The notes under the pieces were generated by a model. That model had not been told where the DNA came from and did no database searches. It saw only the letters and a list, made by a program, of their open reading frames with translations. Positions 6,501 through 25,232 of a stretch of 60,519 nucleotides of DNA are shown here, one piece after another (position 1 is the first letter of the stretch; each line of letters opens with the position of its first letter). The stretch lies in contig JBEGVH010000019.1 in assembly GCA_041178425.1 (NCBI GenBank), forward strand, positions 1 to 60,519, written 5' to 3'. Position numbers and translations under genes: made by a program. This DNA is from Pseudomonadota bacterium (lineage in GTDB: Bacteria > Bdellovibrionota > Bdellovibrionia > Bdellovibrionales > Bdellovibrionaceae).

Positions 6501-6501
6501 T

Positions 6502-8332: not shown

Positions 8333-8344
8333 GTTTATTTTCTC

Positions 8345-9253
8345 CTACGCTTTAAATTCTTTTTTGTACTTCGAACTGTTGGATTGGCTTTTGTTACTGA
8401 AAAATGTGCCCTTGTTTCTCATAAAATAGTGGCTGCTTTGATTAGCGGCCGGTGCTGCGACCCGCTTTACTATGTTCATTGTTCGACCTGGGGAAATGGT
8501 CATTCCACCAATGGTGAGAGCACTCAGATCTTTACCCATTTGCGCTAAACCACTCCCGGCCAGGGCATGGACCACAAAAGGAGTCAGTAACAGAGAGCCT
8601 GCCAAAATGACGTTAAAGGCAATGGCTGTTAAAAAACTCACTTGTGAACCTTGGGCATTGATCTGACTGAGAGCACTACTCCAAAGCAAGGTGGCTATAA
8701 CCGACCACACAATTTTCCACGCTGCCACTTCGATCAATGATTTGAAAAGAGCCGATGTCGCAGAAGCTGTCGCCGGAAGCACAAAAAGTGCGATCAGTAG
8801 CGGCGAAAATACATACAGCATCACCCAAACATAAATATAAAAACTGTCAGCAATGTGAATGGAAAAATATAAAATAAAAAACGTGAGGAAGCTTATTAGA
8901 AGCATCACTGTTTCTTTAAAACTCACCCATGAAAAAGACAATTCACCGAGCTTATCTCCCATTCGATCGAGGATCAGTTTAAAATTGTTTAAATCACCAA
9001 GCTGGCCAGCCACCGCATCAGTCACATCTGCAATGATATTTGTGATGTCAGGATAGGCGTGAAGCAGGATGGCTGCTATCAGTGCTCTACCAACGATGGT
9101 TCCAAAATTCGGTATCTGACCAATGGGCCACTTAAAGAACTCGATGGTCACACCAAGGAGCATTAGAACCGTCACTAAAAGGTAAAAATAACCTGTGAAA
9201 ACCTCATGGATTTTCTTGGCCTCCATGGCAAGCCAACCAATATCTGCTACCAT
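8345..9253 (-). CDS. VirB6/TrbL-like polytopic membrane protein
   Basis: Several TM helices, FSPLLIALFVLP motif, operon position. Confidence 0.7.
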   Translation of the reverse strand: MVADIGWLAMEAKKIHEVFTGYFYLLVTVLMLLGVTIEFFKWPIGQIPNFGTIVGRALIAAILLHAYPDITNIIADVTDAVAGQLGDLNNFKLILDRMGDKLGELSFSWVSFKETVMLLISFLTFFILYFSIHIADSFYIYVWVMLYVFSPLLIALFVLPATASATSALFKSLIEVAAWKIVWSVIATLLWSSALSQINAQGSQVSFLTAIAFNVILAGSLLLTPFVVHALAGSGLAQMGKDLSALTIGGMTISPGRTMNIVKRVAAPAANQSSHYFMRNKGTFFSNKSQSNSSKYKKEFKA

Positions 9254-9267
9254 ACCCAGATCTCCTC

Positions 9268-9963
9268 TTAAAACCGAGGGGCTTTAAACTGTAAGGGCTC
9301 ATTTTTCATTGCAACTCGCAGAGTGTTGGCTGTTTCCAGGTACATCTTCGTTCGGTCTTTCTCTCTTTTGTTTTCGACCGCCATGGTCTGTGCTTGAAGT
9401 TTAAGACCTGTGGCCTGAGTTCTAAGGCTCTGATTCATCAATTGCAGGAGGATTCCCATTGATTGGGCGGTTAATTTTTGAGCTCCACCCGGCGAAACCT
9501 CATGACTGTATTCTTTGATGGCCTCGCCAATTTGATCAATATCTGCTGTGTAACTGTAAATCTGGTTGTTCATCGTAACGGCCTCGGCCACTTGGTGATC
9601 AGTGTCTCGATAAACTTGGGCATCGGGTGAATTCACAACTACCCCATAAATATGCTGAAGTTTTTGAAGTGCCTGATCGACGTTTCTCCAGTCTTGGTAA
9701 ATGCCGGGGTCGATATTGGGGTATATGGTCTGCGCGAGTCTCAACGAATCATTGATCCCTTGGTTAATTTCACGAATCAATTCGAGGTTCTCGCGCCCAT
9801 TATCGACGATGTTTTTCAGTTCAACGAGTTGCTTCAGTGTATTCGTCAGAATCTGGGCGAGATAAAAAATATCTCCTCCCCAGAAATCCGCCCGGGCAGG
9901 TGTGCTGATCACAAAGACCGAAAAAACCACGATCGCTCCAATTCGTTTAAGCTTTTCAGTCAT
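9268..9963 (-). CDS. VirB5/TrbJ-like protein
   Basis: Signal peptide (PARA-D), Q/L-rich helical protein, operon position. Confidence 0.6.
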   Translation of the reverse strand: MTEKLKRIGAIVVFSVFVISTPARADFWGGDIFYLAQILTNTLKQLVELKNIVDNGRENLELIREINQGINDSLRLAQTIYPNIDPGIYQDWRNVDQALQKLQHIYGVVVNSPDAQVYRDTDHQVAEAVTMNNQIYSYTADIDQIGEAIKEYSHEVSPGGAQKLTAQSMGILLQLMNQSLRTQATGLKLQAQTMAVENKREKDRTKMYLETANTLRVAMKNEPLQFKAPRF

Positions 9964-12383
9964 CGATTCACCCCTTGGTTGGCAGCAACACCCTTCGGAA
10001 AATCCTTCGCCAGTCGCTTCAAAATCATTAGTGACGCCTCGGTGGGATAGGCCCTCTGGTATTCTTCAATTTTGCCGAGATCACGACCATCTGTTGTAGC
10101 TAACCAGTATTCAAGTGGAGTTGAATCGATCGCGACCACCACGCGAGCGTCTTCAGCCATCAAAAAGGCTTCTGAATAAATCCCTCGATCCTGGTGCAAT
10201 GAAGTAATTAACTCAACCTCGTTCGGATTGAGAGTTAAAACCTCTCTGAGTCGCTCCTTATCGGCTCCCTTTTGTTTGAGGACCCATTTGATACTACTAT
10301 TGGGTAAGATGGCGTTGGCAATTTTGCTCCGAGCGAAGTCATCAATGTTTTGGGAGATGGCAATTGCGCTGGCCATGTACTTTCGAAAAGTCCTAAAGAC
10401 TTCGGCAATAAAAAGTGACGCCGAATCGTTTTCCATCAATTTCCAACACTCATCTAATATTAGAAATTTCATTCGGGCTCGATCTGTCTGAATTTCGCGC
10501 CACACGAAATCTGTAATGATAAAGAGACAAGCCGATTGGAGGTCTGGATAAGCCTCCATTCCCTTCAAATCAAAACAGACAATCGGTCGGGTTAGCTCGA
10601 GATTGGTTTCTTGATCGACAAATTTCCCATAGGGCGAGCTTCCACACCACGAAGCCAATATCTTCCCAATTCTCTGAATGGAAGGTTCTTGATGACTTAA
10701 TAAGATTTCCCTCAAATCAGAAAGACGGGGTGCCTTCATTTTTTCATAGACTCTCTCAATTGCGGATTCAATTTCAGCCTTCTCAAGTTTACCTAACTGA
10801 ATCTGTTCATTTTCTTTGGTCATGATCTCAACCAAGCTTAAAATAAACTTAATCTTTTGACTGGATGGCTTACTTTCACCCACGCCTAAATCAAAAGGAT
10901 TTATTGAAAGATTAGACTCAACCCCAAGCGGTACATATTGGCCATCGAAATTATCGCAAATCTTTTTATAAGAACCGCCAATATCAACAATGAACACCTT
11001 GGGATTCTCCTTCAACATCTGCATCATCAAAATATTGGTCATAAATGACTTACCACTTCCAGAACCACCACTTACGATTTGGTTTGAGTTCGTCAACTCG
11101 CTGGTAAAGGGATCGAAGCTCAAAAGACTTCCCAGGCGAGTTCGCAACAATATCTTTGGATCTGAATGTCCTTGCCAAGGCCCGAAGACAGGCAGCAAGT
11201 CGCAGAGATTCGATGTCTTGACTCGTTTGATCCGTTCTTTACTTCTACTGTTGGGTAGTGCGATCTCAGAAAAGATATCGAAGGCAGCTAAGGTTTCCTC
11301 CATAGCTTCGGCACCAGCAAGTTCTCGTATCTTCGCTAAGGTCTCTGACACTTTCGCTTCAAGATCGGATTCTTCGCGAGAGCGCACCAATACTTGTAAA
11401 CTTAAATGAAAGACTTTTTCCCCCTGAGCAACCATTTCCTCAAGGAGCGTCTCGAGGTCTTTGAGTTTAGCCTCACTTTCAAGGTCAGAGACGCCGGTTC
11501 GCTTCCCCGCGACCATGGAAAACGCGATCCGACGTTGTGTCTGTAAACTCTCAAGTTCGCTTTGTTGATGGGGCACAAAGATCGAAACAAATACTCTTGT
11601 ATCAAATGGCAACTCACGGAGTTTAGTCGCCATCAATGCAAATGTTTGATCGGGCAGGATCTTTAGTGAAATAACCCTGTACTGGTATTCGCTCATTGAA
11701 AAGCCACGGTCATCGACGCCGACATCAGTAAATAGAACTGATGAGCGAAGATTATCTGGATTGACTCGCCCCAATGAAACTCTACGACTTGGGTTCCATT
11801 GTTCGTACAAAAGCTGAAGGACTTCCTCCGCAGTCAGACGCTCCGGTTTTAATCCCAGCGCTCCAAGACCCGATTCTAAATCCAACAACAAGCGCTCGGT
11901 GAGCACCAATTCACGTTTTAGATTTGACTCCGAAATGGCCTCAAAGGTTTTTGTTCGCGCAAAAGGCGACATTTTCGCCAAAAGCGGATTTTGTGGTTTT
12001 CTTCTAAAAAACATGAATAGACCATGCTTGGGGAGCAGACCTGATTTATCCAGAGATTTCAGTTTTTCAACCCTCGCTTTTGTCAGCTCCTCCACCACAC
12101 TCTCTCCGATATGCACGTCTTCATTCTGCGTTCCAGCATGCCTATCAATGAGGTCCTTATTACCGGCCTTGATATCTTGGATAAATTGAATATCAATCTC
12201 CGAGGGTAAACTGTTGAGAAATTGGGCCAACCGCTGGGAGTATTCATTGGCCTGCTCGATAGACCAACAACTTCCGTCAATAGGCGTGAGTCTAAATCCT
12301 GTTCCAAAAGAGCCATCAATAAAGATTGTTATATTTTCTTCTAGTCCCCAGACTTGAAGTGCATCAGCTAGATTACCGCTCAA
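9960..12383 (-). CDS. virB4: VirB4-family conjugative ATPase
   Basis: GGSGSGKS, IVDIGGSY, LILDECW, RTFRKY and ISQNIDDF motifs; 807 aa. Confidence 0.95.
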   Translation of the reverse strand: MSGNLADALQVWGLEENITIFIDGSFGTGFRLTPIDGSCWSIEQANEYSQRLAQFLNSLPSEIDIQFIQDIKAGNKDLIDRHAGTQNEDVHIGESVVEELTKARVEKLKSLDKSGLLPKHGLFMFFRRKPQNPLLAKMSPFARTKTFEAISESNLKRELVLTERLLLDLESGLGALGLKPERLTAEEVLQLLYEQWNPSRRVSLGRVNPDNLRSSVLFTDVGVDDRGFSMSEYQYRVISLKILPDQTFALMATKLRELPFDTRVFVSIFVPHQQSELESLQTQRRIAFSMVAGKRTGVSDLESEAKLKDLETLLEEMVAQGEKVFHLSLQVLVRSREESDLEAKVSETLAKIRELAGAEAMEETLAAFDIFSEIALPNSRSKERIKRVKTSNLCDLLPVFGPWQGHSDPKILLRTRLGSLLSFDPFTSELTNSNQIVSGGSGSGKSFMTNILMMQMLKENPKVFIVDIGGSYKKICDNFDGQYVPLGVESNLSINPFDLGVGESKPSSQKIKFILSLVEIMTKENEQIQLGKLEKAEIESAIERVYEKMKAPRLSDLREILLSHQEPSIQRIGKILASWCGSSPYGKFVDQETNLELTRPIVCFDLKGMEAYPDLQSACLFIITDFVWREIQTDRARMKFLILDECWKLMENDSASLFIAEVFRTFRKYMASAIAISQNIDDFARSKIANAILPNSSIKWVLKQKGADKERLREVLTLNPNEVELITSLHQDRGIYSEAFLMAEDARVVVAIDSTPLEYWLATTDGRDLGKIEEYQRAYPTEASLMILKRLAKDFPKGVAANQGVNR

Positions 12384-12705
12384 GCTTTTTCCTTTCTTTT
12401 AATTTGGGTGGAGTATTTGAATTGGTTGGTTCCAGAAATGCACAAAACACTCCTGGCTTAATTTGAAAACGCAACCAATGAACGAGGTAGTTTTCAGGCT
12501 TGCCTCGTTTGGCGAATCTCATAATTGCGGCGAGCAAAGCGCTTGGTAGCCACACAAGGAGCCACTTCAATGACGTTGTCCCAAACAGAAAATTCAGAAT
12601 GGACATGGTTAAAAAAATAACCAGAAGATCTGGGACCTCAAATCCCATGATCAACATTTTTTTATCAAGACACTTGCTGACTGGTGTAGCCCTTAGACCA
12701 CTCAA
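12373..12705 (-). CDS. VirB3-like membrane protein
   Basis: Two TMs, LIMGFE motif, located between the pilin and VirB4. Confidence 0.7.
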   Translation of the reverse strand: MSGLRATPVSKCLDKKMLIMGFEVPDLLVIFLTMSILNFLFGTTSLKWLLVWLPSALLAAIMRFAKRGKPENYLVHWLRFQIKPGVFCAFLEPTNSNTPPKLKERKKLER

Positions 12706-12717
12706 TAGAACCCCCTA

Positions 12718-13011
12718 TTAGTGAATTAAGGATTGAATCCAGCTGACAATACTTGGGGCGCCAAAGCCAATGGCTGCGCCGACCATGGCCAAGATCAAAT
12801 GGTTTCTTGCGTTGGGACTTCCTGCAACAAAGGATAGACCCGCAAAGACCAATCCCAAAATGGCAGCTAACGGCAAAATAGTGCCGATGAGCTTTGTTTG
12901 CACGGCAATGAGGCTGGATTCGACGCTGCATAAACCAATCGCTGGTAAAATCAGTAGAGTGATAAAATTCAGAATCTGTAAAAACTTGATCTGATTTTGT
13001 TGTTTCATCAT
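12718..13011 (-). CDS. VirB2/TrbC-family pilin
   Basis: Leader plus two hydrophobic helices ending GAAIGFGAPSIV. Confidence 0.85.
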   Translation of the reverse strand: MMKQQNQIKFLQILNFITLLILPAIGLCSVESSLIAVQTKLIGTILPLAAILGLVFAGLSFVAGSPNARNHLILAMVGAAIGFGAPSIVSWIQSLIH

Positions 13012-13022: not shown

Positions 13023-13367
13023 TTAGTGATTTGTTGGGTAGAGGTTCATGTAAATTTGAGCTTTGAGGAGTGGAAATTTAAGCTCCATAAAGCTGTGCAG
13101 TTTTGCATCAAGAACGCCATTGCCAATGGGATTTAAAAAACGGCTCTCTTTGCCCTCCGTTCGAAGTCGCGAATAGACCGTATATCGCTCGGCTGAGTCC
13201 CTGTTCTTCACCAGATAATAGGTTTGGCCTGGGAACATCATGAGTCTGATCTTGTAATAAGCGGTCCCTTCGTCTTTAAAGGCCGACCCAATTAGAAGTT
13301 TGGCCTCGATGGTATTTTCTTTGCGAAATCCGGTGAACAGTTCATATTTTTCATTTTGTGTTTTCAT
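13023..13367 (-). CDS. Hypothetical protein, possibly DUF736-like
   Basis: Duplicated IG(S/N)(A/G)...I/LxL beta motif. Family call tentative. Confidence 0.55.
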   Translation of the reverse strand: MKTQNEKYELFTGFRKENTIEAKLLIGSAFKDEGTAYYKIRLMMFPGQTYYLVKNRDSAERYTVYSRLRTEGKESRFLNPIGNGVLDAKLHSFMELKFPLLKAQIYMNLYPTNH

Positions 13368-13557
13368 TGCCTAAGTCCCCTTTAATTTTTAAATTCAATT
13401 GCTTTTTTAAACTTCTGATCTTTGCGTATTTTCGTTTTAGCGCTTCATTATTGCGGAGCCCTGGAGCTATTGAAGCCCAGAGTCTTTCAATAGTTTCAGC
13501 CATTTCTTGAACCTGATTGATGTTATTGACCTGAGTGTCTCTAACCGTAGAGTTCAT
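13351..13557 (-). CDS. Small hypothetical basic helical protein
   Basis: 68-aa ORF overlapping both neighbours in the operon. Confidence 0.55.
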   Translation of the reverse strand: MNSTVRDTQVNNINQVQEMAETIERLWASIAPGLRNNEALKRKYAKIRSLKKQLNLKIKGDLGNENTK

Positions 13558-13708
13558 TCGCTAAACTCCGATGTTGCTTCTCAATTTTTTCTATCTCAGA
13601 AATAAGAGGTTTATTTGTCATCAACTCTGTTAGGGGAAGAGAGCCATAAATCTCTCGAATCAATTGATGGAGTGTGATCAAGTCACTGCGAACTAAATGC
13701 CATTTCAT
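13541..13708 (-). CDS. Small hypothetical protein (55 aa, not in ORF track)
   Basis: MKWHLVRSDLITLHQLIREIYGSLPLTELMTNKPLISEIEKIEKQHRSLANELYG*. ATGA overlap with the upstream stop, and it fills the operon gap. Confidence 0.6.
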   Translation of the reverse strand: MKWHLVRSDLITLHQLIREIYGSLPLTELMTNKPLISEIEKIEKQHRSLANELYG

Positions 13709-13989
13709 ACAAGGCCCTTCAATCGAACGACTTTCTTGTCGAATTTGCGAATGATCTTATTTTTGGGATCAAACTGTTCTTTGAATGCAAGAAACCGATT
13801 ATCCATCAGTCCCTCTTGCACATACATCTCGGCGCTATTCCACTCGCAGTGACAGCAAATAGTATCAACGCCAAATTCCACTAAATCGCCTGTTCCACAA
13901 CAAGGGCAGGTTTCGAATTTCAATTGCTTGCGGGTCTCTGGTTGATCTTCGATTTTTCTAGCAAGGCTATCCATTTTAACTCCTTTCAA
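13705..13989 (-). CDS. Zn-ribbon hypothetical protein, first gene of transfer operon
   Basis: CPCCG...CCHC motifs. The real start may be MDSLA after an AAGGAG RBS. Confidence 0.65.
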   Translation of the reverse strand: MKGVKMDSLARKIEDQPETRKQLKFETCPCCGTGDLVEFGVDTICCHCEWNSAEMYVQEGLMDNRFLAFKEQFDPKNKIIRKFDKKVVRLKGLV

Positions 13990-14025
13990 CGTTCTGTCTG
14001 AAACATCCAGACAACCCTATAAAGG

Positions 14026-14041
14026 GCATGAACCGTGCCAA
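14026..14041 (-). promoter_or_regulatory. Sigma-54 (-24/-12) promoter of the transfer operon
   Basis: Minus strand reads TTGGCACGGTTCATGC, versus consensus TGGCAC-N5-TTGC, with exact GG/GC spacing. Adjacent to a bEBP gene. Confidence 0.85.
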
Positions 14042-14133
14042 TGAGCTTCTTTAACTTTAAAACCCTAGTTAACTCATTGAAGACAGAGATAAAAACCCAC
14101 TTTCAAGATCACCCTTGCTCATGAAAATATTTG

Positions 14134-14178
14134 TTCAGTATTCAGGATTCAGAATTCGGATTTTTCTGAATCCTGAAT
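14134..14178. promoter_or_regulatory. Putative upstream activating sequence (bEBP enhancer)
   Basis: Perfect 15-bp inverted repeat ATTCAGGATTCAGAA-N9-TTCTGAATCCTGAAT (14140-14178), built from 7-bp TTCAGNA units, ~100-140 bp upstream of the -24 box. Confidence 0.7.
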
Positions 14179-14293
14179 GAGTTCATTCATTTTGTATTTT
14201 CTCCCTATTGAAAACTTCCTTGATGTTGCATAAAAGGTAGGCAGATTTTTCTGGCCGATAGAGGTCAGTGAAATGACACCTAAGGGGTTGTGA

Positions 14294-15868
14294 ATGCTGC
14301 ATCCAAAGCCTAAAGAACAGATTCAAATACTCATCGTTGATGATCAGAAAGATCAAAGTTTTGTGACCAAAATCTATTGCCGCGATTTATTCACTAAGGT
14401 TGCAGTTAAAGAAAAATTGGACCTTGAGATCAGTGAATTTGAATCTCCCGATGAGGCTGTTGATTTTTGCCTCAATAGTCGGGTTCATATCATTTTGCTC
14501 GATAAAGACCTTGGTGAAAAAAACGGTCAGAAAATTACCGGGATGGATTACATTAAATCTTTTCACGAGCTTCAGCCATGGGCACAGATCATTATACTGA
14601 CCGCCGATGGCTCCTACACTGAAATTGCCAAGGCCATTCGACTTGGGGCCTCCGATTACCTCCTTAAAGGCATGGGGGGCGATTACGCCACTTATAGAGA
14701 TGCGGTATTGACCGGTGCACTTAATCGAGCCCGATTGGAACTCCTTGAATTTAACGAAAGGGCTTTAAAAACTGACATCTCGTCGGACTTCGCCTGCAAA
14801 TCTCCCGTCATGCGCTTTTTTGATCAGAAACTGAAGGCTGTGGCCGAATCATCTTGGCCAGTTCTCTTGCTTGGGGAAAGTGGTCTAGGTAAAGGCTCAG
14901 CCGCTCGGCGAATCAACGAGTACCGAAGGCAATTATTCAAAGATTCAAATCGGCCTTTTATCAACGTGAATATCGGCTCCTTGAGTGACGAACTCGCTCA
15001 GTCAGAGCTTTTTGGGCATGAACCCAATGCTTTTACGGGTGCCTCCAATAAAACAAAACCAGGTCTTCTGGATGCTGCCGCTGGAGGGGATATCTTTCTT
15101 GATGAGATCGGCGATGCCTCTTTAGAAATGCAATTAAAACTTCTGAAAGTCGTTGAAGAGAGAACCTACACCCGTGTTGGGGGCCGCAAAGAAATTCCGA
15201 CGGATGCTCGTTTCATTTTTGCCACTAATAAAAATCTCAGTGAATTGGTCGACAAGGGTTTGTTCAGAGCGGACCTTTACATGCGTATCAGCGCCTTTGA
15301 ATTACAGATTCCAAAGCTTTCCGATCGAAAAGAAGATCTTCCCGAAATTATCAGGCACATGATTAAAAAAGCTCTGAAAGATATGCCAAGCAAGATCGTT
15401 TTTTATGAGCAATTTCCTGATGACCTCATTGATTACCTCACCCGCGACCATATTAAGGGCAACATTCGTGGGATCGAGAATGATGTCATCCGACTGATTA
15501 CCTATGCTCAGCCCGACAGCACAGGGCAGCTATATCTCAAGGATTGGAAATCCATCTTGGGTGTAGAGCCAAAGATCATCCGAAAAAAGGCCCCGGTGAC
15601 AATCAATGAGCAACTGGATCTTTCGACTTTCAAGGATATTGAGACCAATTTATTGTGTGAGTCTGCGGTCGGCCTCAAAGACTTGAGAGATCTTTTTGAA
15701 AAAAAATTAGTTGAAGAGGCGATGAAGAAAAATAACCACAATCTCCGTCTAGCTGCACTCAATTTAAAAATCGCTACGTCACATCTTCACTCGAAGGTGA
15801 AGCAGTTCAAAATTCCGACAAAGAGGGAGGTAAATAATGGACAACAACGATCCAAAAATTCAATTTAG
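14294..15868 (+). CDS. NtrC-family sigma-54-dependent response regulator (REC-AAA+-HTH)
   Basis: ILIVDD...LLDKDL receiver, GESGLGK Walker A, ELFGHEPNAFTGA, FLDEIG, FRADLY and a C-terminal Fis-type HTH. Confidence 0.93.
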   Translation: MLHPKPKEQIQILIVDDQKDQSFVTKIYCRDLFTKVAVKEKLDLEISEFESPDEAVDFCLNSRVHIILLDKDLGEKNGQKITGMDYIKSFHELQPWAQIIILTADGSYTEIAKAIRLGASDYLLKGMGGDYATYRDAVLTGALNRARLELLEFNERALKTDISSDFACKSPVMRFFDQKLKAVAESSWPVLLLGESGLGKGSAARRINEYRRQLFKDSNRPFINVNIGSLSDELAQSELFGHEPNAFTGASNKTKPGLLDAAAGGDIFLDEIGDASLEMQLKLLKVVEERTYTRVGGRKEIPTDARFIFATNKNLSELVDKGLFRADLYMRISAFELQIPKLSDRKEDLPEIIRHMIKKALKDMPSKIVFYEQFPDDLIDYLTRDHIKGNIRGIENDVIRLITYAQPDSTGQLYLKDWKSILGVEPKIIRKKAPVTINEQLDLSTFKDIETNLLCESAVGLKDLRDLFEKKLVEEAMKKNNHNLRLAALNLKIATSHLHSKVKQFKIPTKREVNNGQQRSKNSI

Positions 15869-16103
15869 CAAGACTGAGATCGTCCACGACCTCAATAATC
15901 TTAATTACCTCCTGAGAACACTTGCAAAAGTCATTGACGGAATGGCTGAGCTGCCACCAGACATAAAGAGACTTTCTGCGGGAGCTGTTTCAACGACAGA
16001 TCGCCTTATTGCCAAGTTAGGTGGCGCACCAAGGTCAGCAGAGAGCTTGGTGAAAGAACCTTCGAATAACCATGGCTCTGCTGATGAGGGTCTTAATCGA
16101 TGA
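15837..16103 (+). CDS. Stand-alone HisKA/DHp-like small protein
   Basis: EIVHDLNN H-box followed by a two-helix pattern, no ATPase domain. Strong AGGGAGG RBS. Confidence 0.6.
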   Translation: MDNNDPKIQFSKTEIVHDLNNLNYLLRTLAKVIDGMAELPPDIKRLSAGAVSTTDRLIAKLGGAPRSAESLVKEPSNNHGSADEGLNR

Positions 16104-16176
16104 ATCAATACAAATTAAAGGGTTCAAATATTTCTTTCATCTTTTGGGGTTTTAAATCTAACCCCAAGGGGGCTTA

Positions 16177-16983
16177 ATGGTCGAAACAAATAAGCATTAC
16201 GATATAGACTCTGGCTTCTTTAAGGCCTTTTTAGATCCTTATATGAAGTACACCAGTGGTCTTTATACAAATAATGAATCCCTCGCACAGGGTATTCTTA
16301 ATATGCTCGATAAGCATGTGGGTTTTCTTCAACACTACAAAGCACCGCGCATTTTAGAGATTGGGCCGGGCTGGGGTTCATTTATTTATCGTCTTCAAGA
16401 AAAGGAGATTCCTTTTGAATACACAGCGATCAATCCTTCCAAGGTACAAAATGAGTTTATCAACAATCGTTTGGAAAAGCCGGTTAAAATTATTGAAAGC
16501 AGCTTTGAGGAGGCTGAGCTAAAACCAGAATCATTTGATTTGGTGTATTTTATTGGTTCGTTCTGCCACATGCAAGACAAGCTAACCCAGCTTGAAAAAC
16601 TCAATCACGTTCTTTCAAACGGTGGTCGTGTTATTATCGAAGATACCTTTTTTATCTCAGAAAAAATGTACCAAAAGCATCACGCGCGTAACGAAACAAA
16701 ATATGTTCAACAAGAGGTCTTTGGTTTTGCTGAAATCCTGTCGCTTTCAAACTTTATAGAGGTCGCGGCCAATAGAGGCTTTCAGGTGCAAACAATTTTG
16801 GAGCACTCCAGTAGTTATGCTAGGACTGTCGAGCTGTGGCTGGAAAAGCTTTATCCTATGCGAGAGAGTGGCAAATATCCCCAAGCTGACGAGTTTATTA
16901 AGTACCTAGAAATTGCGCAGCGGGGCTGGCGCTATACTATTGCCAATTACCTTATTGAAATTCAGAAAGTGAGTCGCAAATGA
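16177..16983 (+). CDS. SAM-dependent methyltransferase, cyclopropane-fatty-acid synthase/mycolic-acid MTase family
   Basis: HYDIDSGFFKAFLDPYMKYTSGLY, ILEIGPGWG and SYARTVELW. At 268 aa it lacks the N-terminal domain of E. coli-type Cfa. Confidence 0.85.
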   Translation: MVETNKHYDIDSGFFKAFLDPYMKYTSGLYTNNESLAQGILNMLDKHVGFLQHYKAPRILEIGPGWGSFIYRLQEKEIPFEYTAINPSKVQNEFINNRLEKPVKIIESSFEEAELKPESFDLVYFIGSFCHMQDKLTQLEKLNHVLSNGGRVIIEDTFFISEKMYQKHHARNETKYVQQEVFGFAEILSLSNFIEVAANRGFQVQTILEHSSSYARTVELWLEKLYPMRESGKYPQADEFIKYLEIAQRGWRYTIANYLIEIQKVSRK

Positions 16984-17552
16984 TTCAATTGATTTCCATG
17001 TTTGCAGATTTGTTTAGTTTAAAAAAGCAACCAGTGCCCATGGCTAAGGAACAATTTGATTTTAGCCATCCAATTCAGTTTCCATTTTTGAATTCGGATC
17101 TTCACAAGGGTTTCGTGAATTCCAAGTCAAATGATTGGGGTCTGCAAGCTGAATTTTTTAAAGGCAAAGAAAAGACGGCTTATTGTAAATGGGAGCGGGT
17201 GATTGATCCTTTTCAGGGGTTCTCAGGCATCATTCATGGTGGAATCCTAGTGACTTTAGCTGATGAACTAATGGCAAACTGCGTTTTGGCCCATACCGAG
17301 AAATTTTCAGTCAGCCTCAAAGCGACGGTTAAATGGCATAGCCCGGTAAAGATTGGCGATGCCGTTTTAGGTTATGCGCAGATCATTTCTGAATATAAGA
17401 ACTTTAAAAAGGTTCGGTTCATCATTCAATCCGAAGCGGGTAAGGTTGTGCTATCTGGCGAAGGACTATTTTATTTACCAACACAAAAACAATTCAATCG
17501 CATGACAGGCATCAACCTGCCACCTGAACTACAAACTTATTTGAGAGGTTAA
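16980..17552 (+). CDS. PaaI-family hot-dog thioesterase
   Basis: GIIHGGILVTLADE motif; 4-bp overlap with the methyltransferase. Confidence 0.85.
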   Translation: MIQLISMFADLFSLKKQPVPMAKEQFDFSHPIQFPFLNSDLHKGFVNSKSNDWGLQAEFFKGKEKTAYCKWERVIDPFQGFSGIIHGGILVTLADELMANCVLAHTEKFSVSLKATVKWHSPVKIGDAVLGYAQIISEYKNFKKVRFIIQSEAGKVVLSGEGLFYLPTQKQFNRMTGINLPPELQTYLRG

Positions 17553-17553
17553 A

Positions 17554-17973
17554 ATGGAATTTAAAGAAGCTGTGATCGAGCTCGATATTGAATTTGAAGA
17601 TTTAGATGCAGGGGGCGTCATTCATCATCCTAATTACATCAAAGTATGTGAGAGGGCCAGAGGGCGATGGTTGGCCAGCAATAACATCACATTCAAGAGC
17701 CTGAAAGATAAAGACGTTGCTTTGGCTGTTCGATCCATACAAGCCGACTATTTGAAGCCAATTTCTATGGAGAGGGTGAAAGTCGCATTAAAAATTCTAT
17801 CCCATTCAGAGAAATCAATCGTTATTCGCCATGAGATATCCCCAGTGGCTTCGCAGAGACCTGGTGCCTACTTCACTGCGGATATTGCATTTGTCACTGC
17901 GAACTATTCAACGGCTAAATCGTGCCCGCTACCAAACGAAATTCTGGATTTTATCAGGATTCAAGGCATTTAG
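17554..17973 (+). CDS. YbgC/4HBT-family acyl-CoA thioesterase
   Basis: DLDAGGVIHHPNYIKVCERAR motif. Confidence 0.88.
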   Translation: MEFKEAVIELDIEFEDLDAGGVIHHPNYIKVCERARGRWLASNNITFKSLKDKDVALAVRSIQADYLKPISMERVKVALKILSHSEKSIVIRHEISPVASQRPGAYFTADIAFVTANYSTAKSCPLPNEILDFIRIQGI

Positions 17974-17983
17974 AGGTCAATTT

Positions 17984-20623
17984 ATGGTTCGTTTTGCGAG
18001 TCTTTTATTTTTAGTCGGATCGCTGTTTTTGGGCCAACTTGGGCTTGCCGAGGTCTATCTTACCTCGGATCACACCAATGTTAATGCTTTGATGGCGCGG
18101 GCTCTGCTTTTCAAAGATGAGGGCAATGCTCTTTCTGTGACCGAAGGGATGAGGTTTGACGACGTAAAAATAAAATTGTCGCAGTTACAGGAGACGAATC
18201 TTAAAGGAGTCAATGGATACAAGGGCACCAAGGTCTGGTTCTACCTACCTGTGGTCAACCAGACTGCCTTCACGAATTTCATTCTTAGGTATTCCTACCC
18301 ATCGATGCAACGGATTCACTTTTATTTATTCGACGAAAGCAAATTGATTTCATCTATGGAATCAGGGAAGCTCATCCCTTTCCAGCAGAGACCGATGAAA
18401 GATACCGATTATGAATTTCCTTTCGTGCTCGATAAAGACAAAACCTACCATATCTTAATGAGCTTTGAATCCAGTGGCTCGATGCAATTACCGATCGAGA
18501 TACTTTCTACGAACCAATTGCATGAGTTGACTCAAAATAAATACCTTTTCTATGGCATCTACTACGGAATCATTCTTCTGATTTTGCTTTATAGTGCCTT
18601 TTTGTCGATAACGCTGCGGGAGGGAATCTATACCTCTTATTTAGCCTATCTTATTGCCGTTGTATTTGCGCAGATGGGATTGCATGGCATCTCTTATCGT
18701 TATTTTTGGCCCAATATGCCGGAATGGAATAAGGTCAGCACGATTTTCTTTGTTCCGTTGATGTTCAGTTTCTTATCCATTTTTGCAGTCAATTCCCTGG
18801 ACCTTAAAAAGCAAGTGCCCTTGGCCTACAAAGTTTTGATGGGCTTTGCGGCCTTTTCATTTTCGATTTCGATCTCGGCACTTTTTGCTTACGGAAGCAC
18901 TATCATTAAGATTACGGGCCTCATTACTTCGCTGCTGCCATTTATCATGATCCCTCCAGCAATTATGGCGTGGAAAAGAAAAGTGGAATTTGCACCTTAT
19001 TACCTTTCGGCTGTTTTCTTCTATATCATTGGAGCCAGTCTCTATGGGTTAAAAGACTCCGGCATTATCCCCTCAAATTTTATAACCGAGAATGGAATCT
19101 TACTGGGTTCATTGATTGAGATTTTGATTTTTTCTGTGGGTATCGCGGTCCATATTCAAAAAATTCAAAAGCAAGCGGATTCTTTGAAGCTTGATCTAGA
19201 AAAGTCAAAAGTGCTGAGTGAAGTAGCGTCCCAAATCAGCCATGATATTCGTTCGCCACTTTCGGCATTAAATATGGTCTCAGCTTCGCTATTTGAAATC
19301 CCAGAAGAAAAACGACTGCTCATCCGAAACGCTTCTCAGCGAATCAACGATATTGCTAACCAGTTGCTTACTAAATCCAAAGAGACTCAAAAGACTAATC
19401 CGGTTAAGAGCCAGACTAGCCATGTTGAATTGTTAACTGGGGTCGTCGATGTGTTAGTTTCAGAGAAGCGAACGCAATTCCGAGATAAGCTGGGCATCTC
19501 AATTGAATTAGATCTTAACCGAGGCTATGGGGTTTTTGCTGAGATTGCCCCCATTGAGCTTAAACGAGCTTTAAGTAACTTGGTCAATAACTCCGTCGAG
19601 GCCTTTGAAAATGCAAAGGGGCTTGTTACTGTAGGTGTTACCCAGGATGATTCGAGCGCTATTATTTATGTGCGTGATAATGGTAAAGGCATACCTGAAC
19701 ATGTTTTAAAAAAGCTGGGTAATGAACGGGTTTCATTTGGGAAAGAGGGTACAAATTCCGGCAGTGGCTTAGGGATCTACCATGCCCAAAAAATGGTCGA
19801 TTCAGTGGGCGGCAAATTTAGAATTGAGTCTCAACCTGGTCAGGGTACAACCATTTATCTTGAGTTGAGAAAAGCGGCTGCGCCGAAGTGGTTTGTAGGA
19901 AAATTGGAATTGAAGAATCATAGTCATGTTGTTTGCATTGATGACGATGTCTCTATCCACCAAATCTGGAAGGATCGGTTGGATTCACTTAAATCAGACG
20001 ATATCGACCTCTCGTTGATCAATCTTTCATCGGGTAGTGCCCTTGGGGATTGGATCGCGTCTAGCTGCAGCCAATTAGAGAGCTGTCTTTTCTTGGTTGA
20101 CTATGAGCTGCTCGGGCAGCCGGACACGGGCTTGGATTTGATTGAAAAATACAAGCTTCAAAAGAAGGCCATTTTGGTGACAAGTCGCTTTGAGGAATCT
20201 GAAATTCAAGATCGCTGTTCTCGCCTTGGGGTCAGGCTGATTCCTAAAGGATTGGCGGCTATTGTACCAATTGAACTAGAGATGACGAATATTAAAATTG
20301 ACGCTTGTCTTATCGATGACGATCCATTGATCAGGCTTACTTGGGATCTTGCAGCAAAAGATTCTGGATCGACAATTGTAAGCTTTGATTCATTTGAGGC
20401 GTTCAAAGCTAGTTCGGCTAAAATCGCCAAAGAGACCCCTATAAGCGTGGATGTCAACCTAGGTAATGTGACCCGAGGTACTGACGTTGCCCGTGCACTA
20501 AATAACATGGGTTACCAGCGGATTTATTTAGCAACCGGATATGCCTCTGGGAGTATTGGGGATGTTCCCCCCTTTGTGATAGCTGTGCATGGAAAAGATC
20601 CAGCTTTTGTAAGAGGTAATTAG
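17984..20623 (+). CDS. 7TM-DISM hybrid sensor histidine kinase with two C-terminal receivers
   Basis: Signal peptide, DISMED2-like ectodomain, 7 TMs, SHDIRSPL H-box, NLVNNSVEA/DNGKG/GLG boxes and two IDDD receiver motifs. ATG 17984 has a GAGGT RBS. Confidence 0.9.
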   Translation: MVRFASLLFLVGSLFLGQLGLAEVYLTSDHTNVNALMARALLFKDEGNALSVTEGMRFDDVKIKLSQLQETNLKGVNGYKGTKVWFYLPVVNQTAFTNFILRYSYPSMQRIHFYLFDESKLISSMESGKLIPFQQRPMKDTDYEFPFVLDKDKTYHILMSFESSGSMQLPIEILSTNQLHELTQNKYLFYGIYYGIILLILLYSAFLSITLREGIYTSYLAYLIAVVFAQMGLHGISYRYFWPNMPEWNKVSTIFFVPLMFSFLSIFAVNSLDLKKQVPLAYKVLMGFAAFSFSISISALFAYGSTIIKITGLITSLLPFIMIPPAIMAWKRKVEFAPYYLSAVFFYIIGASLYGLKDSGIIPSNFITENGILLGSLIEILIFSVGIAVHIQKIQKQADSLKLDLEKSKVLSEVASQISHDIRSPLSALNMVSASLFEIPEEKRLLIRNASQRINDIANQLLTKSKETQKTNPVKSQTSHVELLTGVVDVLVSEKRTQFRDKLGISIELDLNRGYGVFAEIAPIELKRALSNLVNNSVEAFENAKGLVTVGVTQDDSSAIIYVRDNGKGIPEHVLKKLGNERVSFGKEGTNSGSGLGIYHAQKMVDSVGGKFRIESQPGQGTTIYLELRKAAAPKWFVGKLELKNHSHVVCIDDDVSIHQIWKDRLDSLKSDDIDLSLINLSSGSALGDWIASSCSQLESCLFLVDYELLGQPDTGLDLIEKYKLQKKAILVTSRFEESEIQDRCSRLGVRLIPKGLAAIVPIELEMTNIKIDACLIDDDPLIRLTWDLAAKDSGSTIVSFDSFEAFKASSAKIAKETPISVDVNLGNVTRGTDVARALNNMGYQRIYLATGYASGSIGDVPPFVIAVHGKDPAFVRGN

Positions 20624-20869: not shown

Positions 20870-21085
20870 ATGGTTCAGGCCCAGATGTGGTATACTGTTG
20901 AGCAGATAGCAGCTCACCTACAGGTATCAAAAGAAACAATCTACAGATGGCTTGATAAAGGCCGCATCCCAGCTCATCGCGTTGGTAAGCAGTGGCGGTT
21001 TCTAACTACCGAAGTCGATGAGTGGGTTAAACGCGGCGATGCAATTGAGAACCCACGCGAACAATCTACTGGGGAGTTGAGATGA
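20870..21085 (+). CDS. Excisionase-family HTH DNA-binding regulator
   Basis: WYTVEQIAAHLQVSKETIYRWLDKGRIPAHRVGKQWRF; GGAGG RBS; heads the defence operon. Confidence 0.9.
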   Translation: MVQAQMWYTVEQIAAHLQVSKETIYRWLDKGRIPAHRVGKQWRFLTTEVDEWVKRGDAIENPREQSTGELR

Positions 21086-21157
21086 TTCAAAATAAGCATC
21101 CTTACAGCATTTTATCACCCAGCCAGTACACTTTAAAAAATATGAGAGAGCCTCAAC

Positions 21158-21871
21158 ATGGGTAAATTGCCTAACTCGAATAAATCTGTTTCAAATAGTT
21201 ATCTCGAAGCCTTGAAGGCAATTAATGGGTGGACCACAGTTTCGGATTGGGCTCTTAAAGTCGGAGAGATGTTTCCAGAGCTTTTAGAAAAAGCAAATAA
21301 AGAAGCCAAAAACCACAAGCGGCCCACTACTGGTATTAGAGAAATTGCTGCGCGCATTAGTTCCTGGGTTTCAACTGACGGATTCGCTGGAAAAATTGAG
21401 GTTGATGAATCCGAACGCCCTAAACGAGTTCGAATCTTATCAGAGGAGGCGGCTTCTCACTATCAAGAAATATCTCTTGAAGCAGATCTTGAGCCATTGA
21501 CACGCGCTCAACGAATTAAATCTGATGAAGAAAGCTTGGGACTAAAAGAGAAATATCGAATTGCTGAGTTTGATGCCATTATCAGACAATTAAAAGAATT
21601 CTTTAACCTTGATTTTGAATTAGAACATGCGAAAGCGATCTTAAATTCAACAGATCCAGGCAAACATCATCCTGACAACCTTCAAATCTTACTCAAATCT
21701 CACAACCGATTAAAAAGCAATAGTAACTGGGACCGATTTTCTCTCCAAGAACAAATTGAATACATAAAAGCAGTCGTTCAAGTTCAGAAGCTTGTATCGG
21801 CAAAGATGAAAGTTGACCTTCACGATGACGTTATCGGCTCAATTATCGAACGACTTAAATTGATTTATTGA
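21158..21871 (+). CDS. HNH endonuclease domain protein
   Basis: ELEHAKAI...GKHHPDNLQILLKSHNRLKSN HNH motif. Confidence 0.8.
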   Translation: MGKLPNSNKSVSNSYLEALKAINGWTTVSDWALKVGEMFPELLEKANKEAKNHKRPTTGIREIAARISSWVSTDGFAGKIEVDESERPKRVRILSEEAASHYQEISLEADLEPLTRAQRIKSDEESLGLKEKYRIAEFDAIIRQLKEFFNLDFELEHAKAILNSTDPGKHHPDNLQILLKSHNRLKSNSNWDRFSLQEQIEYIKAVVQVQKLVSAKMKVDLHDDVIGSIIERLKLIY

Positions 21872-21881: not shown

Positions 21882-22046
21882 ATGAAGTTACAAATATCGA
21901 AGGAGTGCAGTTTCAGTCGGCTTGCGAGCATTGGTGGGTCGGTGTCCAGAATCAGTCTACCCAGCAAGATAAATGCTTTGGGGTTCGTTAGATGGATGAT
22001 CTTTGATGGGTTTATTAATTCGTTTGCAAAGGGAACGCTACAATGA
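21882..22046 (+). CDS. Small hypothetical ORF (54 aa) coupled to drmD
   Basis: GAGGA RBS, open frame, and its TGA overlaps the drmD ATG (ATGA). Confidence 0.4.
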   Translation: MKLQISKECSFSRLASIGGSVSRISLPSKINALGFVRWMIFDGFINSFAKGTLQ

Positions 22047-25000
22047 ATACTCCTGAAATTGGCAGTGCAGTATACATAAGGCAACGGCAATATGTTATCG
22101 ATGACGTTATTTATCCGTCCTCTCCCCATTCTTGCCACGTTGTTACATTAAGTTGCATTGATGACGATGCCCAGGGGCATCAGATCAAGGTTTTATGGGA
22201 AAAGGAATTTGATAAGCTTCCCAACTATGGTGAAAATTGGGCTGATCTGTCAGATCGGGCATTTGATAATCCAAAGGTGTTTTCGGCTTTCTATCATAAT
22301 CTTAACTGGAATAGTATTACATCAACAGATCCTGAGTTATTTCAGTCGCCGTTTCGCTCAGGCATCAAGATAGAGCCTTATCAGCTTGAACCACTTTGGA
22401 AGGCTCTGAAGTTACCAAGAGTAAACTTATTTATCGCCGACGACGTTGGACTAGGAAAAACCATTGAAGCGGGTTTAATTGCACGGGAATTACTAATTAG
22501 AAAAAAAGTAAGAGACATTGTTGTTGCAGCGCCCCCTTCAATGCTCTACCAGTGGAAAGAGGAACTGGAAAATAGATTTGGTCTCATGTTTGAGATCATG
22601 GATAAAAAATATATTTCAAAAATCAGACAAGAGCGTGGTTGGGCTGTTAATCCATGGGAAACACATTCTCGCTTTCTGGTTTCGCACAAGATGCTAATTG
22701 ATGATGAATATACATCTTTACTTCGTGATTGGCTCACCGAATTCAGAGGTAGATCAATTCTAATTCTGGATGAAGCCCATCATGCTGCGCCGGCAAGCGA
22801 CGGACTTTATGCAGTTGAAAGCCAATTTACTAAAGCAGTCATGGATTTGGCACCACGATTCGAGCATCGTCTTTTTCTATCTGCAACACCGCATAATGGG
22901 CATTCAAATAGCTTTTCAACTTTACTAGAGATTCTTGATCCAAATCGTTTTTATCGTTCCGAAAAAATAAAAGACAAAAAATTAATTGATGACATTATGG
23001 TTCGCCGTCTCAAAGAAGATTTACGCGATATAGTTCCAGGCTTCCCAGTTAGAAAGGTTGAGGCTATATCAATTAAAGAGGATACGTGGCCAGAGATTAA
23101 ACTATCTAATCTTTTACAACAGTATAAGGAAATCAAAGAGCTCCGTTTAAAAAGTTTAAAAGACAAATCAAAAGTATCTGCGGGGTTAGTTTTGACTGGA
23201 TTACAGCAACGACTTCTGTCATCTCCTGAAGCCTTTTACAAGACACTAAAAACACATAAAAATTCTTTTCAAAAACAAAGCAACACCATCCCATCTAATT
23301 CGATTGAATTTAGGAAAAGTGATTATTCTTTAGTACGACAAAGTGTCGATCAAGATAGTGATTTTGCAGATCTTACTCAAGAAGAGCTCGAAAAAATCGA
23401 AACTTCAATGATTGAAGAACTAACATCACTTAGCAATGAAGATCTCGAAGCAGAGGCATTAAAAAAGGAGCAGGCTTTGCTAGAACAGATGATGGGAATT
23501 GCTGAAGGGTGTCGTTACAAAAAAGATGGAAAAGTAACTTATTTAATTAATTGGATTGTTCAAAATCAATGTCCTGATAGGAAAAATTGGAGTGATTTAC
23601 GAGTTATTATTTTTACAGAATATGAGGACACCAAAAATTATATAAAAAATCAATTAGAACAGTTTTTTGACGGCCAAGTTGATTTTCAAGACCGCATTGC
23701 AGTTTTTCATGGCCCAACTACTATGGAAAAAAGAGAAGAAATAAAAAGAGCATTTAATGAAAACCCTTCGAAAAATAAATTGAGAATTTTAATTACCACT
23801 GATGCAGCGAGAGAGGGCCTTAATCTCCAGACTCATTGCTGGAACTTATTTCATTATGATATTCCCTGGAACCCAGGTCGCCTTGAGCAAAGAAATGGAC
23901 GGATAGATCGAAAGCTTCAGCCAAACAAAGAGGTTTATTGCCGCTATTTTGAGTATGCACATCGAGCAGAAGATAAAGTCTTGGCCACCCTTATAAGAAA
24001 GACAGAAACAATACGTAATGAGCTTGGTAGTTTATCACAAGTATTAGATCCTCAGATCACAGCCCTATTCGAGTACGGAATTGATCAACGTAAAATATCA
24101 GAAATAGACAGTAAAATAACCGGAACCTCGTTAGATGATTACAAAAGAAAGATCATTGAAAGTGAATTGGACCTTGCTCGCGATAAAAGGAAGCAAGATA
24201 TTAAAGACAAAATTGAATTAATGAAAAGGCTTTTAAAAAAATCTCAAAAATGGATTTCAATGGAAGATGAGTATCTACGATCAGCTATTAATTGTTCTCT
24301 CGAATTATCAAAATTACCTGGCTTAATTCAATCTGATCTTGGATTAATGTTTCCAAATATTACCGACTCCATAAAAGATTCTACTTGGCAAGCAACCCTA
24401 GATACACTTCGACCACCTAGGAGAAGAGATCAGAAACCTGCTGAATGGCGCGCGGAAACAACTTTTCGCCCGATTGTCTTTCAAGATCAGGAGAATATCA
24501 TGGATGAAAAAGTTCATCTTCATCTTGAACATCGACTTGTTAAGCGTTTGCTAAATAAATTTTCAGCTCAAGGATTCATTCAAGATGGATTGAGTAAAAT
24601 CTGTGTAATTCCAAGTAAAGTAAAAACACCTCGAGCAGTTTTATTAACAAGATTGTTATTTTTTAGTAAAAATGGTGCTGGCAGACTCCATGAGGAGATC
24701 ATTCCTATTTCCGCGGAGTGGATTTCCCGCGATAGGAAAAAAGGCATTCGTGTCTTTAAGGAAGAGGGCGAAGAAAGCTCGCTAAAGTTTATTCAGAGCG
24801 CCCTCTTGAATGACCAATTTAAAATCGTCGACACAACACTTATTAAACAATTTATACAAGAGGACTTTGAATCTCTTGCTTTTAACATTAAGGAGAGACT
24901 TGCTAACAGATGGGTAGAAATTGAAGAGGCATTGAAAAAAAGAGCAATTAATGAGGCCAATTCGCTTCGTGAATTGTTGGCAAATCAACTAAAGAGAATT

Positions 25001-25231
25001 AACGCAAAATTAGATGATAAAGAGGCCTGGCAGCCAAACTTTTTTGATCTGCTATATCCAGAAGAAAAAAAGCAAATAGACGCTGACAAAAGAGCATTGA
25101 TTAAAAAGGCCGAGAGATTAAAAAACGAGATAACTGAAGAGCCTGAAAAGGTTAAGAAAATATATGAGTATCACACTCCAAGAGTCGAAAAATTAGGACT
25201 GGTCTATCTGTGGCCCGAGGGTGGAGAGTAA
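22043..25231 (+). CDS. drmD: DISARM SNF2-like helicase DrmD
   Basis: IADDVGLGKT, LDEAHH, LSATPHNG and QRNGRIDR motifs; class I DISARM gene order. Confidence 0.9.
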   Translation: MNTPEIGSAVYIRQRQYVIDDVIYPSSPHSCHVVTLSCIDDDAQGHQIKVLWEKEFDKLPNYGENWADLSDRAFDNPKVFSAFYHNLNWNSITSTDPELFQSPFRSGIKIEPYQLEPLWKALKLPRVNLFIADDVGLGKTIEAGLIARELLIRKKVRDIVVAAPPSMLYQWKEELENRFGLMFEIMDKKYISKIRQERGWAVNPWETHSRFLVSHKMLIDDEYTSLLRDWLTEFRGRSILILDEAHHAAPASDGLYAVESQFTKAVMDLAPRFEHRLFLSATPHNGHSNSFSTLLEILDPNRFYRSEKIKDKKLIDDIMVRRLKEDLRDIVPGFPVRKVEAISIKEDTWPEIKLSNLLQQYKEIKELRLKSLKDKSKVSAGLVLTGLQQRLLSSPEAFYKTLKTHKNSFQKQSNTIPSNSIEFRKSDYSLVRQSVDQDSDFADLTQEELEKIETSMIEELTSLSNEDLEAEALKKEQALLEQMMGIAEGCRYKKDGKVTYLINWIVQNQCPDRKNWSDLRVIIFTEYEDTKNYIKNQLEQFFDGQVDFQDRIAVFHGPTTMEKREEIKRAFNENPSKNKLRILITTDAAREGLNLQTHCWNLFHYDIPWNPGRLEQRNGRIDRKLQPNKEVYCRYFEYAHRAEDKVLATLIRKTETIRNELGSLSQVLDPQITALFEYGIDQRKISEIDSKITGTSLDDYKRKIIESELDLARDKRKQDIKDKIELMKRLLKKSQKWISMEDEYLRSAINCSLELSKLPGLIQSDLGLMFPNITDSIKDSTWQATLDTLRPPRRRDQKPAEWRAETTFRPIVFQDQENIMDEKVHLHLEHRLVKRLLNKFSAQGFIQDGLSKICVIPSKVKTPRAVLLTRLLFFSKNGAGRLHEEIIPISAEWISRDRKKGIRVFKEEGEESSLKFIQSALLNDQFKIVDTTLIKQFIQEDFESLAFNIKERLANRWVEIEEALKKRAINEANSLRELLANQLKRINAKLDDKEAWQPNFFDLLYPEEKKQIDADKRALIKKAERLKNEITEEPEKVKKIYEYHTPRVEKLGLVYLWPEGGE

Positions 25232-25232
25232 T

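Follow-up and report, generated by a model that had tools for sequence, protein, structure and literature searches.

We analyzed a 60,519-nt stretch of Bdellovibrionaceae DNA (contig JBEGVH010000019.1, in full; hereafter the window), in which a block of six genes sits within an intact-looking 38.7-kb integrative and conjugative element (ICE) integrated at tRNA-His. The block encodes a sigma-54 activator, a His-box mini-protein, an S-adenosylmethionine (SAM) methyltransferase, two thioesterases, and a hybrid kinase. The six genes named by an earlier interpretation of this DNA (the sequence-only reading) were all confirmed; they share one direction and lie close together, with gaps of −32, 73, −4, 1, and 10 nt. 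We propose that this locus switches the transfer of a Bdellovibrio-type ICE and pairs a fixed output with a plug-in input. Judged from gene context and conserved residues, the chances are about even that the full circuit operates as envisaged, with an acyl-derived signal read by the kinase and passed through the mini-protein to the activator to control transfer. The sequence-only reading had advanced a fatty-acid circuit of this kind; its sigma-54 control, mini-gene, enzyme–kinase linkage, and signal slot are supported by comparison, whereas its five-gene synteny, cyclopropanation, and switch-on by the signal are not.

Proposed sigma-54 output of the transfer switch

The first gene of the block (14294–15868, plus strand) encodes a REC-AAA+ protein with the characteristics of an NtrC-type sigma-54 activator: Asp70, Walker A and B, the NAFTGA loop, the arginine finger, and sensor II are all intact. 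Across 45 aligned relatives, 44 have Phe or Tyr in the loop and 44 have Thr. For the C-terminal Fis-type HTH, an HTH_8 match (PF02954) is recorded for relatives such as P0094 and P0101, and the family scan gave none for the window activator. The host genome (G000) has rpoN.

Divergent from the block, 18 open reading frames (ORFs) run from 13989 to 1993 with every gap at most 14 nt. This transfer run includes genes for a pilin, a VirB3-like protein, VirB4/TraC, TrbI/VirB10, an FtsK-type ATPase, a Replic_Relax relaxase, an excisionase (xis), and an integrase (int). A motif search placed a candidate sigma-54 −24/−12 promoter facing the run at 14025–14040 (minus strand). The site begins at 14040, 51 nt before the first ORF, and agrees with 10 of 12 consensus positions; such a motif arises in 2.7% of shuffles of the same 520-nt region. 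A perfect 15-bp inverted repeat, a candidate enhancer, lies at 14140–14178, 100 nt upstream of the −24 element. Comparable repeats are infrequent, though others exist: 848 kb of this genome contains 35 seeds. The sequence-only reading had likewise described a divergent operon with a −24/−12 promoter and an enhancer-like palindrome.

The clade of the activator comprises the window and 17 further loci, of which L272 and L273 lack upstream DNA and were excluded from the promoter test. Among these related, non-independent elements, and with a pattern relaxed after sites had been seen, a −24/−12 motif occurs on the tra-facing strand in 13 of the 16 testable loci (window included; 0.41 expected) and on the opposite strand in one; with a strict GC, 10 of 16 retain it on the tra strand. 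The motifs lie 226–311 nt from the receiver start of the activator. When the scan was anchored on the leader gene carrying CxxC motifs, a looser pattern, also relaxed after the fact and run as an uncontrolled scan, gave sites 85–154 nt upstream in 16 of 19 loci. This comparison supports the claimed sigma-54 control of the transfer operon. In the proposed output, the phosphorylated activator would bind the inverted repeat and open the promoter at 14040, which would drive the leader genes, the type IV secretion system (T4SS), the relaxase, xis, and int. The gene content is observed directly, and the functional scheme, from activator through sigma-54 promoter to the whole transfer run, is very probably correct.

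No IHF consensus was found between the promoter and the inverted repeat. A scan for sigma-70 promoters and terminators returned promoters at a level not above chance (25 vs 33) and was left unused. Where the second leader gene begins, there is another GG-N10-GC motif (13687–13702, minus strand).

Mini-protein, kinase, and proposed relay

The second gene (15837–16103, plus strand) is an 88-aa ORF with a His-box (His17) and no Pfam family. Proteins of the HPt (LuxU) type are four-helix bundles with an active His; with no Pfam match and two predicted helices (residues 12–34 and 41–60), the mini-protein is not predicted to be of that type. DHp-type phosphotransferases are helical hairpins with an H-box His that dimerize and pass on phosphate. 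The predicted model and the alignment provide a helical hairpin and an invariant His, and the mini-protein is a candidate stand-alone phosphotransferase of this type. Fold searches returned generic helical hairpins only, and in the nearest named Atlas cluster 18% of members have HisKA, which serves as a lead only.

Comparison supports the mini-gene noticed by the sequence-only reading as a real, conserved gene. Besides the window, 11 of the 15 evaluable clade loci have one (10 stand-alone and one, in L268, fused to a receiver); four loci lack it, and two further loci end inside the activator. The clade ORFs are 71–87 aa long, overlap the end of the activator, and carry His-Asp near their start. 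His17 and Asp18 are the sole invariant residues, with relatives 12–18% identical to the window mini-protein. A tblastn search of the fetched loci with the window mini-protein alone recovered only the self-match, and detection required position and a profile. The profile picked those 11 ORFs from 4,105 small ORFs of 72 loci and found the L268 fusion (E 4.5e-6) though it was outside the training set. Among 1.84 billion proteins it gave 48 matches, 46 of them small, with the His kept in 46 of 46, a residue that the profile itself favors.

The block ends with a hybrid kinase (17984–20623, plus strand) of 7TMR-DISMED2/7TM-HisKA-HATPase architecture and two C-terminal receivers, with His420, intact N and G boxes, Asp706 in receiver 1, and Asp823 in receiver 2. 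Its start had been placed at 17831 but is most likely 17984 (879 aa), because this position has a sequence resembling a ribosome-binding site (RBS), lies 10 nt past the stop codon of the second thioesterase gene, and yields a hydrophobic N-terminus. The element encodes no other kinase. In the proposed relay, phosphate would pass from His420 to a receiver Asp, then to His17 of the mini-protein, and finally to Asp70 of the activator, and the mini-protein would let unrelated hybrid kinases drive the same activator. We regard this scheme as likely. In L268, the mini-protein is fused to a receiver homologous to receiver 2 of the window kinase (E 3e-9), and the L268 kinase has no receiver, which is the arrangement expected of a relay. 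Of the mini-gene loci that include a kinase, all 7 have the receiver-2 type, vs 0 of 41 other element kinases, and in the window genome it was found solely in the window kinase. On a kinase tree of 57 rows (three excluded for short cores), this receiver type requires four changes, at least two of them forced by strong branches. An absolute rule that receiver 2 occurs only with a mini-gene was dropped, as six further two-receiver kinases in G434 and G104 lack a mini-gene on their contig.

The proposed wiring resembles the Vibrio LuxN/LuxPQ/CqsS–LuxU–LuxO pathway, which also joins hybrid kinases, a small His protein, and an activator of the same family (PMC13220807). Against the NCBIfam LuxO model, the window activator gives E 1.2e-56, far below the model's cut-off. 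Several unrelated sensors feed one relay in Vibrio (PMC13220807), whereas here there is one input per element, carried on an ICE. The output in Vibrio is the Qrr RNAs rather than a transfer operon, and the mini-protein is a predicted hairpin rather than an HPt bundle.

The proposed input cassette and competing explanations

Elements of this kind are common, with VirB4 relatives in 146 of the 390 class genomes, and we compared the regions upstream of 60 of the best-scoring of 223 VirB4 matches, which are not a random sample. A sigma-54 activator lies upstream of virB4 in 41 of the 60 regions; of the 36 elements for which 10 kb or more is assembled on that side, 34 have the activator and 33 have both activator and kinase. 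Between these two genes, relatives mostly carry a small secreted-looking, precursor-like ORF, an SBP_bac_5 gene, and a modifying enzyme. The slot enzymes across the 60 regions include YcaO-like (30, by weak Pfam matches), DUF4135/LanM-like (4), and radical SAM (3) proteins, and three regions have a lipocalin-like gene in the slot. In L264 (4019–4769), a fatty-acid desaturase, cut by the contig end, directly follows an activator of the same type and a mini-gene, making it by sequence a second candidate fatty-acid cassette. L268 (4287–11881) encodes the activator, the His-hairpin–receiver fusion, an O-methyltransferase, an aromatic amino-acid hydroxylase, a LysE exporter, a secreted protein, and the kinase, next to a different transfer system (TraU/coupling-protein region); its genes suggest a candidate methoxy-aromatic signal cassette.

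These related elements support the signal-cassette role of the slot, and the sister cassettes with secreted precursor-like proteins suggest self-made signals. From gene context, we somewhat favor a self-made signal as the input in the window as well. A broader proposal is more tentative, and we would put it at rather less than an even chance: that Bdellovibrio-type ICEs conduct a chemical census of their carriers, with a stand-alone His-hairpin adaptor linking chemically unrelated signal cassettes to one sigma-54 transfer switch. In such a census, some cassettes would supply modified peptides, while L264, L268, and the window would respectively contribute a desaturated fatty acid, an aromatic amino-acid derivative bearing a methyl group, and a methylated acyl product. 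Other loci show further variation. L274 (7230–11611) and L275 (7228–14244) have related activators without a mini-gene, followed by a protein of about 1,000 aa with ankyrin repeats and a kinase, and their activator regions are divergent from a coupling-protein/T2SSE ATPase region. L293 (424–8362) encodes a kinase with a long N-terminal membrane region, MFS-like by eye, and has a reverse-transcriptase-like insertion in its tra leader region.

In the window, the slot begins with a 73-nt leader (16104–16176, plus strand) with a predicted hairpin, its 3' arm covering part of the RBS region of the methyltransferase gene; the prediction was made without a shuffle control. The methyltransferase (16177–16983, plus strand) is a single-domain protein of 268 aa that matches the CMAS family (E 1.8e-24) and aligns from residue 4–6 with the catalytic domain only. 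CFA synthase's lipid-binding domain at the N-terminus, which is tied to membrane substrates (PMC11387697), is absent. The structural model is confident (pLDDT 95), with UmaA and PcaA as the closest folds and plant N-methyltransferases close behind. The enzyme shares with the mycolic-acid methyltransferases PcaA, CmaA1, and UmaA the single-domain CMAS fold (TM 0.82–0.85), the SAM-binding motif, and the Tyr ligand, at about 20% identity. The bicarbonate ligands Glu140, His167, and Tyr232 are described as essential for cyclopropanation (PMC9821293; also PMC10491745). In an HMMER alignment with CmaA1, Tyr alone of the three is kept (Tyr214), while Glu140 and His167 align with Cys130 and Glu155, both of which are invariant in 45 sequences.

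Because two of the three bicarbonate ligands are replaced, classical, bicarbonate-dependent cyclopropanation is unlikely, as is the cyclopropanated product that had been suggested. A membrane-remodeling role of the enzymes is likewise weakened by these replacements and by the missing lipid-binding domain. Glu155 may act as the base and the product may be methyl-branched, a tentative assignment given the low identity and the plant N-methyltransferases that score only slightly lower. Downstream are two hot-dog thioesterases of the 4HBT family, a PaaI-type one (TE1; 16980–17552, plus strand) with conserved HGG and Asp-Glu motifs and a hydrophobic N-terminal extension, and a YbgC-type one (TE2; 17554–17973, plus strand). 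The motifs of both are kept across homologues. In the proposed input, the methyltransferase would modify a soluble acyl-ACP or acyl-CoA, probably with a methyl branch or related group, the thioesterases would release the acid, and the 7TM-DISM kinase would sense it, so that the signal would report the number of neighbors carrying the same element. If the signal is indeed self-made, it is probably acyl-derived.

RpfF of Xanthomonas is a dehydratase/thioesterase of crotonase fold. In the RpfF/RpfC system, thioester hydrolysis frees a fatty-acid signal, the diffusible signal factor (DSF), that a hybrid kinase reads (PMC13465397, PMC13220807), much as envisaged here. The Rpf output is c-di-GMP via RpfG, whereas the window has hot-dog domains and a sigma-54 activator, with no RpfF-type domain match. 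The Ralstonia PhcB/PhcS system (3-OH PAME/MAME) offers a second parallel, an operon of SAM methyltransferase and sensor kinase with a fatty-acid-derived signal (PMC13220807). The Phc product is a methyl ester; here, a CMAS-like enzyme is combined with two hot-dog thioesterases, a 7TM-DISM sensor, and a sigma-54 output. PhcB is of the O-methyltransferase type; the best family matches of the window methyltransferase are CMAS.

The methyltransferase family is distinct and comprises 69 clusters. The order methyltransferase–TE1–TE2–kinase is kept in G244, L011, and L091 (L011 and L091 are near copies), which supports the enzyme–kinase linkage. Some further co-occurrence was inferred from equal contig sizes, with the DNA unread and only the longest contig per protein reported. 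By this measure, 6 of 9 close sensor homologues match a family methyltransferase. By size alone, activator P0193, methyltransferase P0204, and kinase P0073 all fall on 19,413-nt contigs, and activator P0196 and methyltransferase P0203 on 9,873-nt contigs, which suggests two further elements with activator and methyltransferase. No relative of the methyltransferase or of the activator N-terminus was found in viral contigs, and a plasmid search gave no match at 1e-30.

Several observations weigh against the acyl-signal circuit. Neither the window methyltransferase nor its thioesterases occur in any of the 60 related upstream regions, and the five-gene synteny with tra genes was not found there or in 12 further activator loci; the expectation that all five genes would stay with virB4 and int in other ICEs failed in all DNA loci read. 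The G244 unit is chromosomal, beside a LysR gene, with a receiverless kinase and no activator or tra gene within about 25 kb on either side, and the L011 unit follows a resolvase, again with neither activator nor tra genes. The methyltransferase family is present in only 3 of the 390 class genomes; in the class of G104 it is found in 1 of 38 genomes (G104 itself), at a contig end. Ten of 12 other methyltransferase-family loci from the collection scans have no adjoining thioesterase pair or kinase. Seven activators of 67–89% identity, on contigs longer than 20 kb, have no size-matched methyltransferase contig and therefore probably carry other cassettes. On the tree, the core of the window kinase falls beside a paralogue from the host's own chromosome, apart from the peptide-cassette kinases. 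The ligands reported for 7TMR-DISMED2 sensors in the passages of PMC7695008 consulted are calcium and mucin glycans, with no fatty acid among them. The six two-receiver kinases of G434 and G104 on mini-gene-free contigs are mostly near binding-protein or RiPP-type genes, and no mini-gene was detected in G104 (93% complete). For the promoter, a family-wide unanchored scan (2.35 kb) was weak, with motifs in 18 of 59 regions, against 12 for the opposite strand and an expectation of 5.5.

Some of these points suit an alternative in which the four genes are a mobile passenger module that displaced a peptide cassette and signals elsewhere or nowhere, leaving the activator orphaned or driven by host cross-talk. 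The free-standing units in G244 and L011, the kinship of the kinase core with a host chromosomal kinase, and the other cassettes that close activators seem to precede are all compatible with it. However, the unit occupies the usual slot with the kinase last, that kinase is the sole one of the element and the sole receiver-2 protein of the genome, and the relay residues are all intact. Activator and methyltransferase are also paired, by equal contig size only, on two more contigs at 77–88% identity. We consider a passenger cassette rather unlikely.

A second alternative, in line with the lipid remodeling that the sequence-only reading had raised as its own alternative, keeps the kinase in control of transfer but has it sense a cue from outside or from the envelope, such as an ion, a glycan, contact with prey, or the state of the membrane; the enzymes would then act on cell lipids. 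The DISMED2 ligands fit this account, and a response to membrane fluidity is considered possible for RetS (PMC7695008). Five of the ten methyltransferase loci without the thioesterase pair or kinase also have a gene upstream, which in each of the three scanned encodes an alpha/beta hydrolase. However, the lipid-binding domain and two of the three bicarbonate ligands are missing from the methyltransferase, thioesterases free acids and do not build phospholipid, and the slot elsewhere holds sets of enzyme and receptor. We consider this alternative unlikely. Eavesdropping or quenching, in which the kinase would sense an acyl signal of prey or neighbors and the enzymes would inactivate or convert it, is very improbable: methylation and thioester hydrolysis would suit turnover equally well, and DSF turnover has acyl-CoA steps (PMC13465397), but no acyl-CoA ligase or uptake gene is among the cassette family matches, and the sister cassettes come with genes for secreted precursor-like proteins of their own.

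The distant methyltransferase homologues in L012, L013, L014, L016, and L094 each follow an alpha/beta hydrolase gene in a constant two-gene arrangement on the chromosome, with no kinase, mostly near exbD and uvrA.

In the TraI/TraR systems of Ti plasmids and rhizobial ICEs, an element-encoded diffusible acyl-homoserine lactone (AHL) controls transfer in Gram-negatives through a one-component LuxR receptor with positive feedback and no phosphorelay. For the acyl-signal circuit, the sequence-only reading had the signal switch transfer on, which was an assumption; in Vibrio, the same architecture is switched off by the signal, the kinase being active without it (PMC13220807). The own signal of pLS20 and of ICEBs1 is described as suppressing mating among donors (PMC3814332; PMC6334282). 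In these Rap–Phr systems, as proposed here, an element-encoded signal gates conjugation, and transfer occurs when recipients surround donors (PMC3814332), although they work by peptide import and anti-repression, with neither kinase nor sigma-54. By analogy with Vibrio LuxU–LuxO and Bacillus Rap–Phr, and because no sigma-54 motif for positive feedback was found on the plus (cassette) strand of the element, we lean slightly toward a signal that turns transfer off. The proposed circuit resembles LuxU–LuxO in wiring, Phc or Rpf in chemistry, and Rap–Phr in purpose.

If the broader census proposal holds, it would bring a new class of fatty-acid signal made by a new type of synthase (a new CMAS subfamily), and the first lipid ligand for a 7TM-DISM sensor. 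The circuit, if it is as proposed, would add to AHL/LuxR and imported peptides a further design of signal-controlled conjugation, in which a phosphorelay like that of Vibrio leads to sigma-54. Location in the activator–kinase interval would predict which unannotated enzymes make signals, allowing new signal chemistry to be mined by position. With small enzymes and a defined promoter, the key claims are approachable in E. coli without predator culture. Full-text searches, in which few subscription journals were covered, listed no paper that deals with control of Bdellovibrio ICEs by sigma-54 or by a signal.

The element and its other genes

The element has an integrase, an excisionase, and direct repeats flanking the integration site, together with T4SS genes (pilin, VirB4, TrbI), a weakly matched Replic_Relax relaxase, and an FtsK-type ATPase, as an ICE should. 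The left att site (840–857) matches 17 of 18 nt of the tRNA-His 3' end, and the right att site was located by repeat match together with the tRNA-His gene (39530–39605) at 39526–39605 (minus strand). All genes of the transfer run are on the minus strand. Its final gene encodes a tyrosine integrase (1993–3138; Pfam Phage_integrase, E 3.6e-25), preceded by those for an excisionase-like HTH_17 protein (3135–3371, by family match), a putative Replic_Relax relaxase (4199–5086; E 1.5e-05, barely over the curated cut-off), and an FtsK/SpoIIIE ATPase (5073–6578) that, by family match, is probably the coupling protein. The type IV secretion genes (6502–13011) comprise TrbI/VirB10 (6502–7392), VirB4/TraC (9960–12383), the pilin (12718–13011), a VirB3-like gene, and four ORFs without a family match. 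Four small leader genes (13023–13989) open the run; the ORF at 13705–13989 has two CxxC motifs, and for that at 13023–13367, 50 of the 60 related regions contain a homologue.

A close, fragmented copy of the element is present in a sequencing run of another study (X2), where one contig spans 2121–13991 with 277 differences and overlapping contigs span 14186–17328. Lower-depth contigs in the same run (likeness 80) omit 14274–16100 and 16166–16978 and connect the sequence on either side, so that almost exactly the activator with the mini-gene and the methyltransferase are left out; they may represent a reduced variant element or another organism.

Short TGTCATCA repeats lie directly inside both att sites (900–920 and 39352–39396) and resemble arm-type sites of integrases. 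Two loci at 135–1818 are toxin–antitoxin-like: an HTH_3 antitoxin-like gene beyond the left att site, and a pair of DUF4258 and HTH genes within the element. Downstream of the kinase, 20870–21871 contains a second excisionase-like HTH_17 gene, also found 3' of the cassette in L202, L204, L205, and L268, and a 237-aa ORF without a family match that by eye resembles an HNH nuclease. The cargo includes a complete DISARM class I system at 22043–34969 (DrmD, DrmMI, DrmA, DrmB, DrmC). It is followed at 34966–38836 by a Dsr1-like sirtuin defense gene in two overlapping ORFs, a 350-aa SIR2 part and a 946-aa remainder, which align to profile positions 10–282 and 306–1210.

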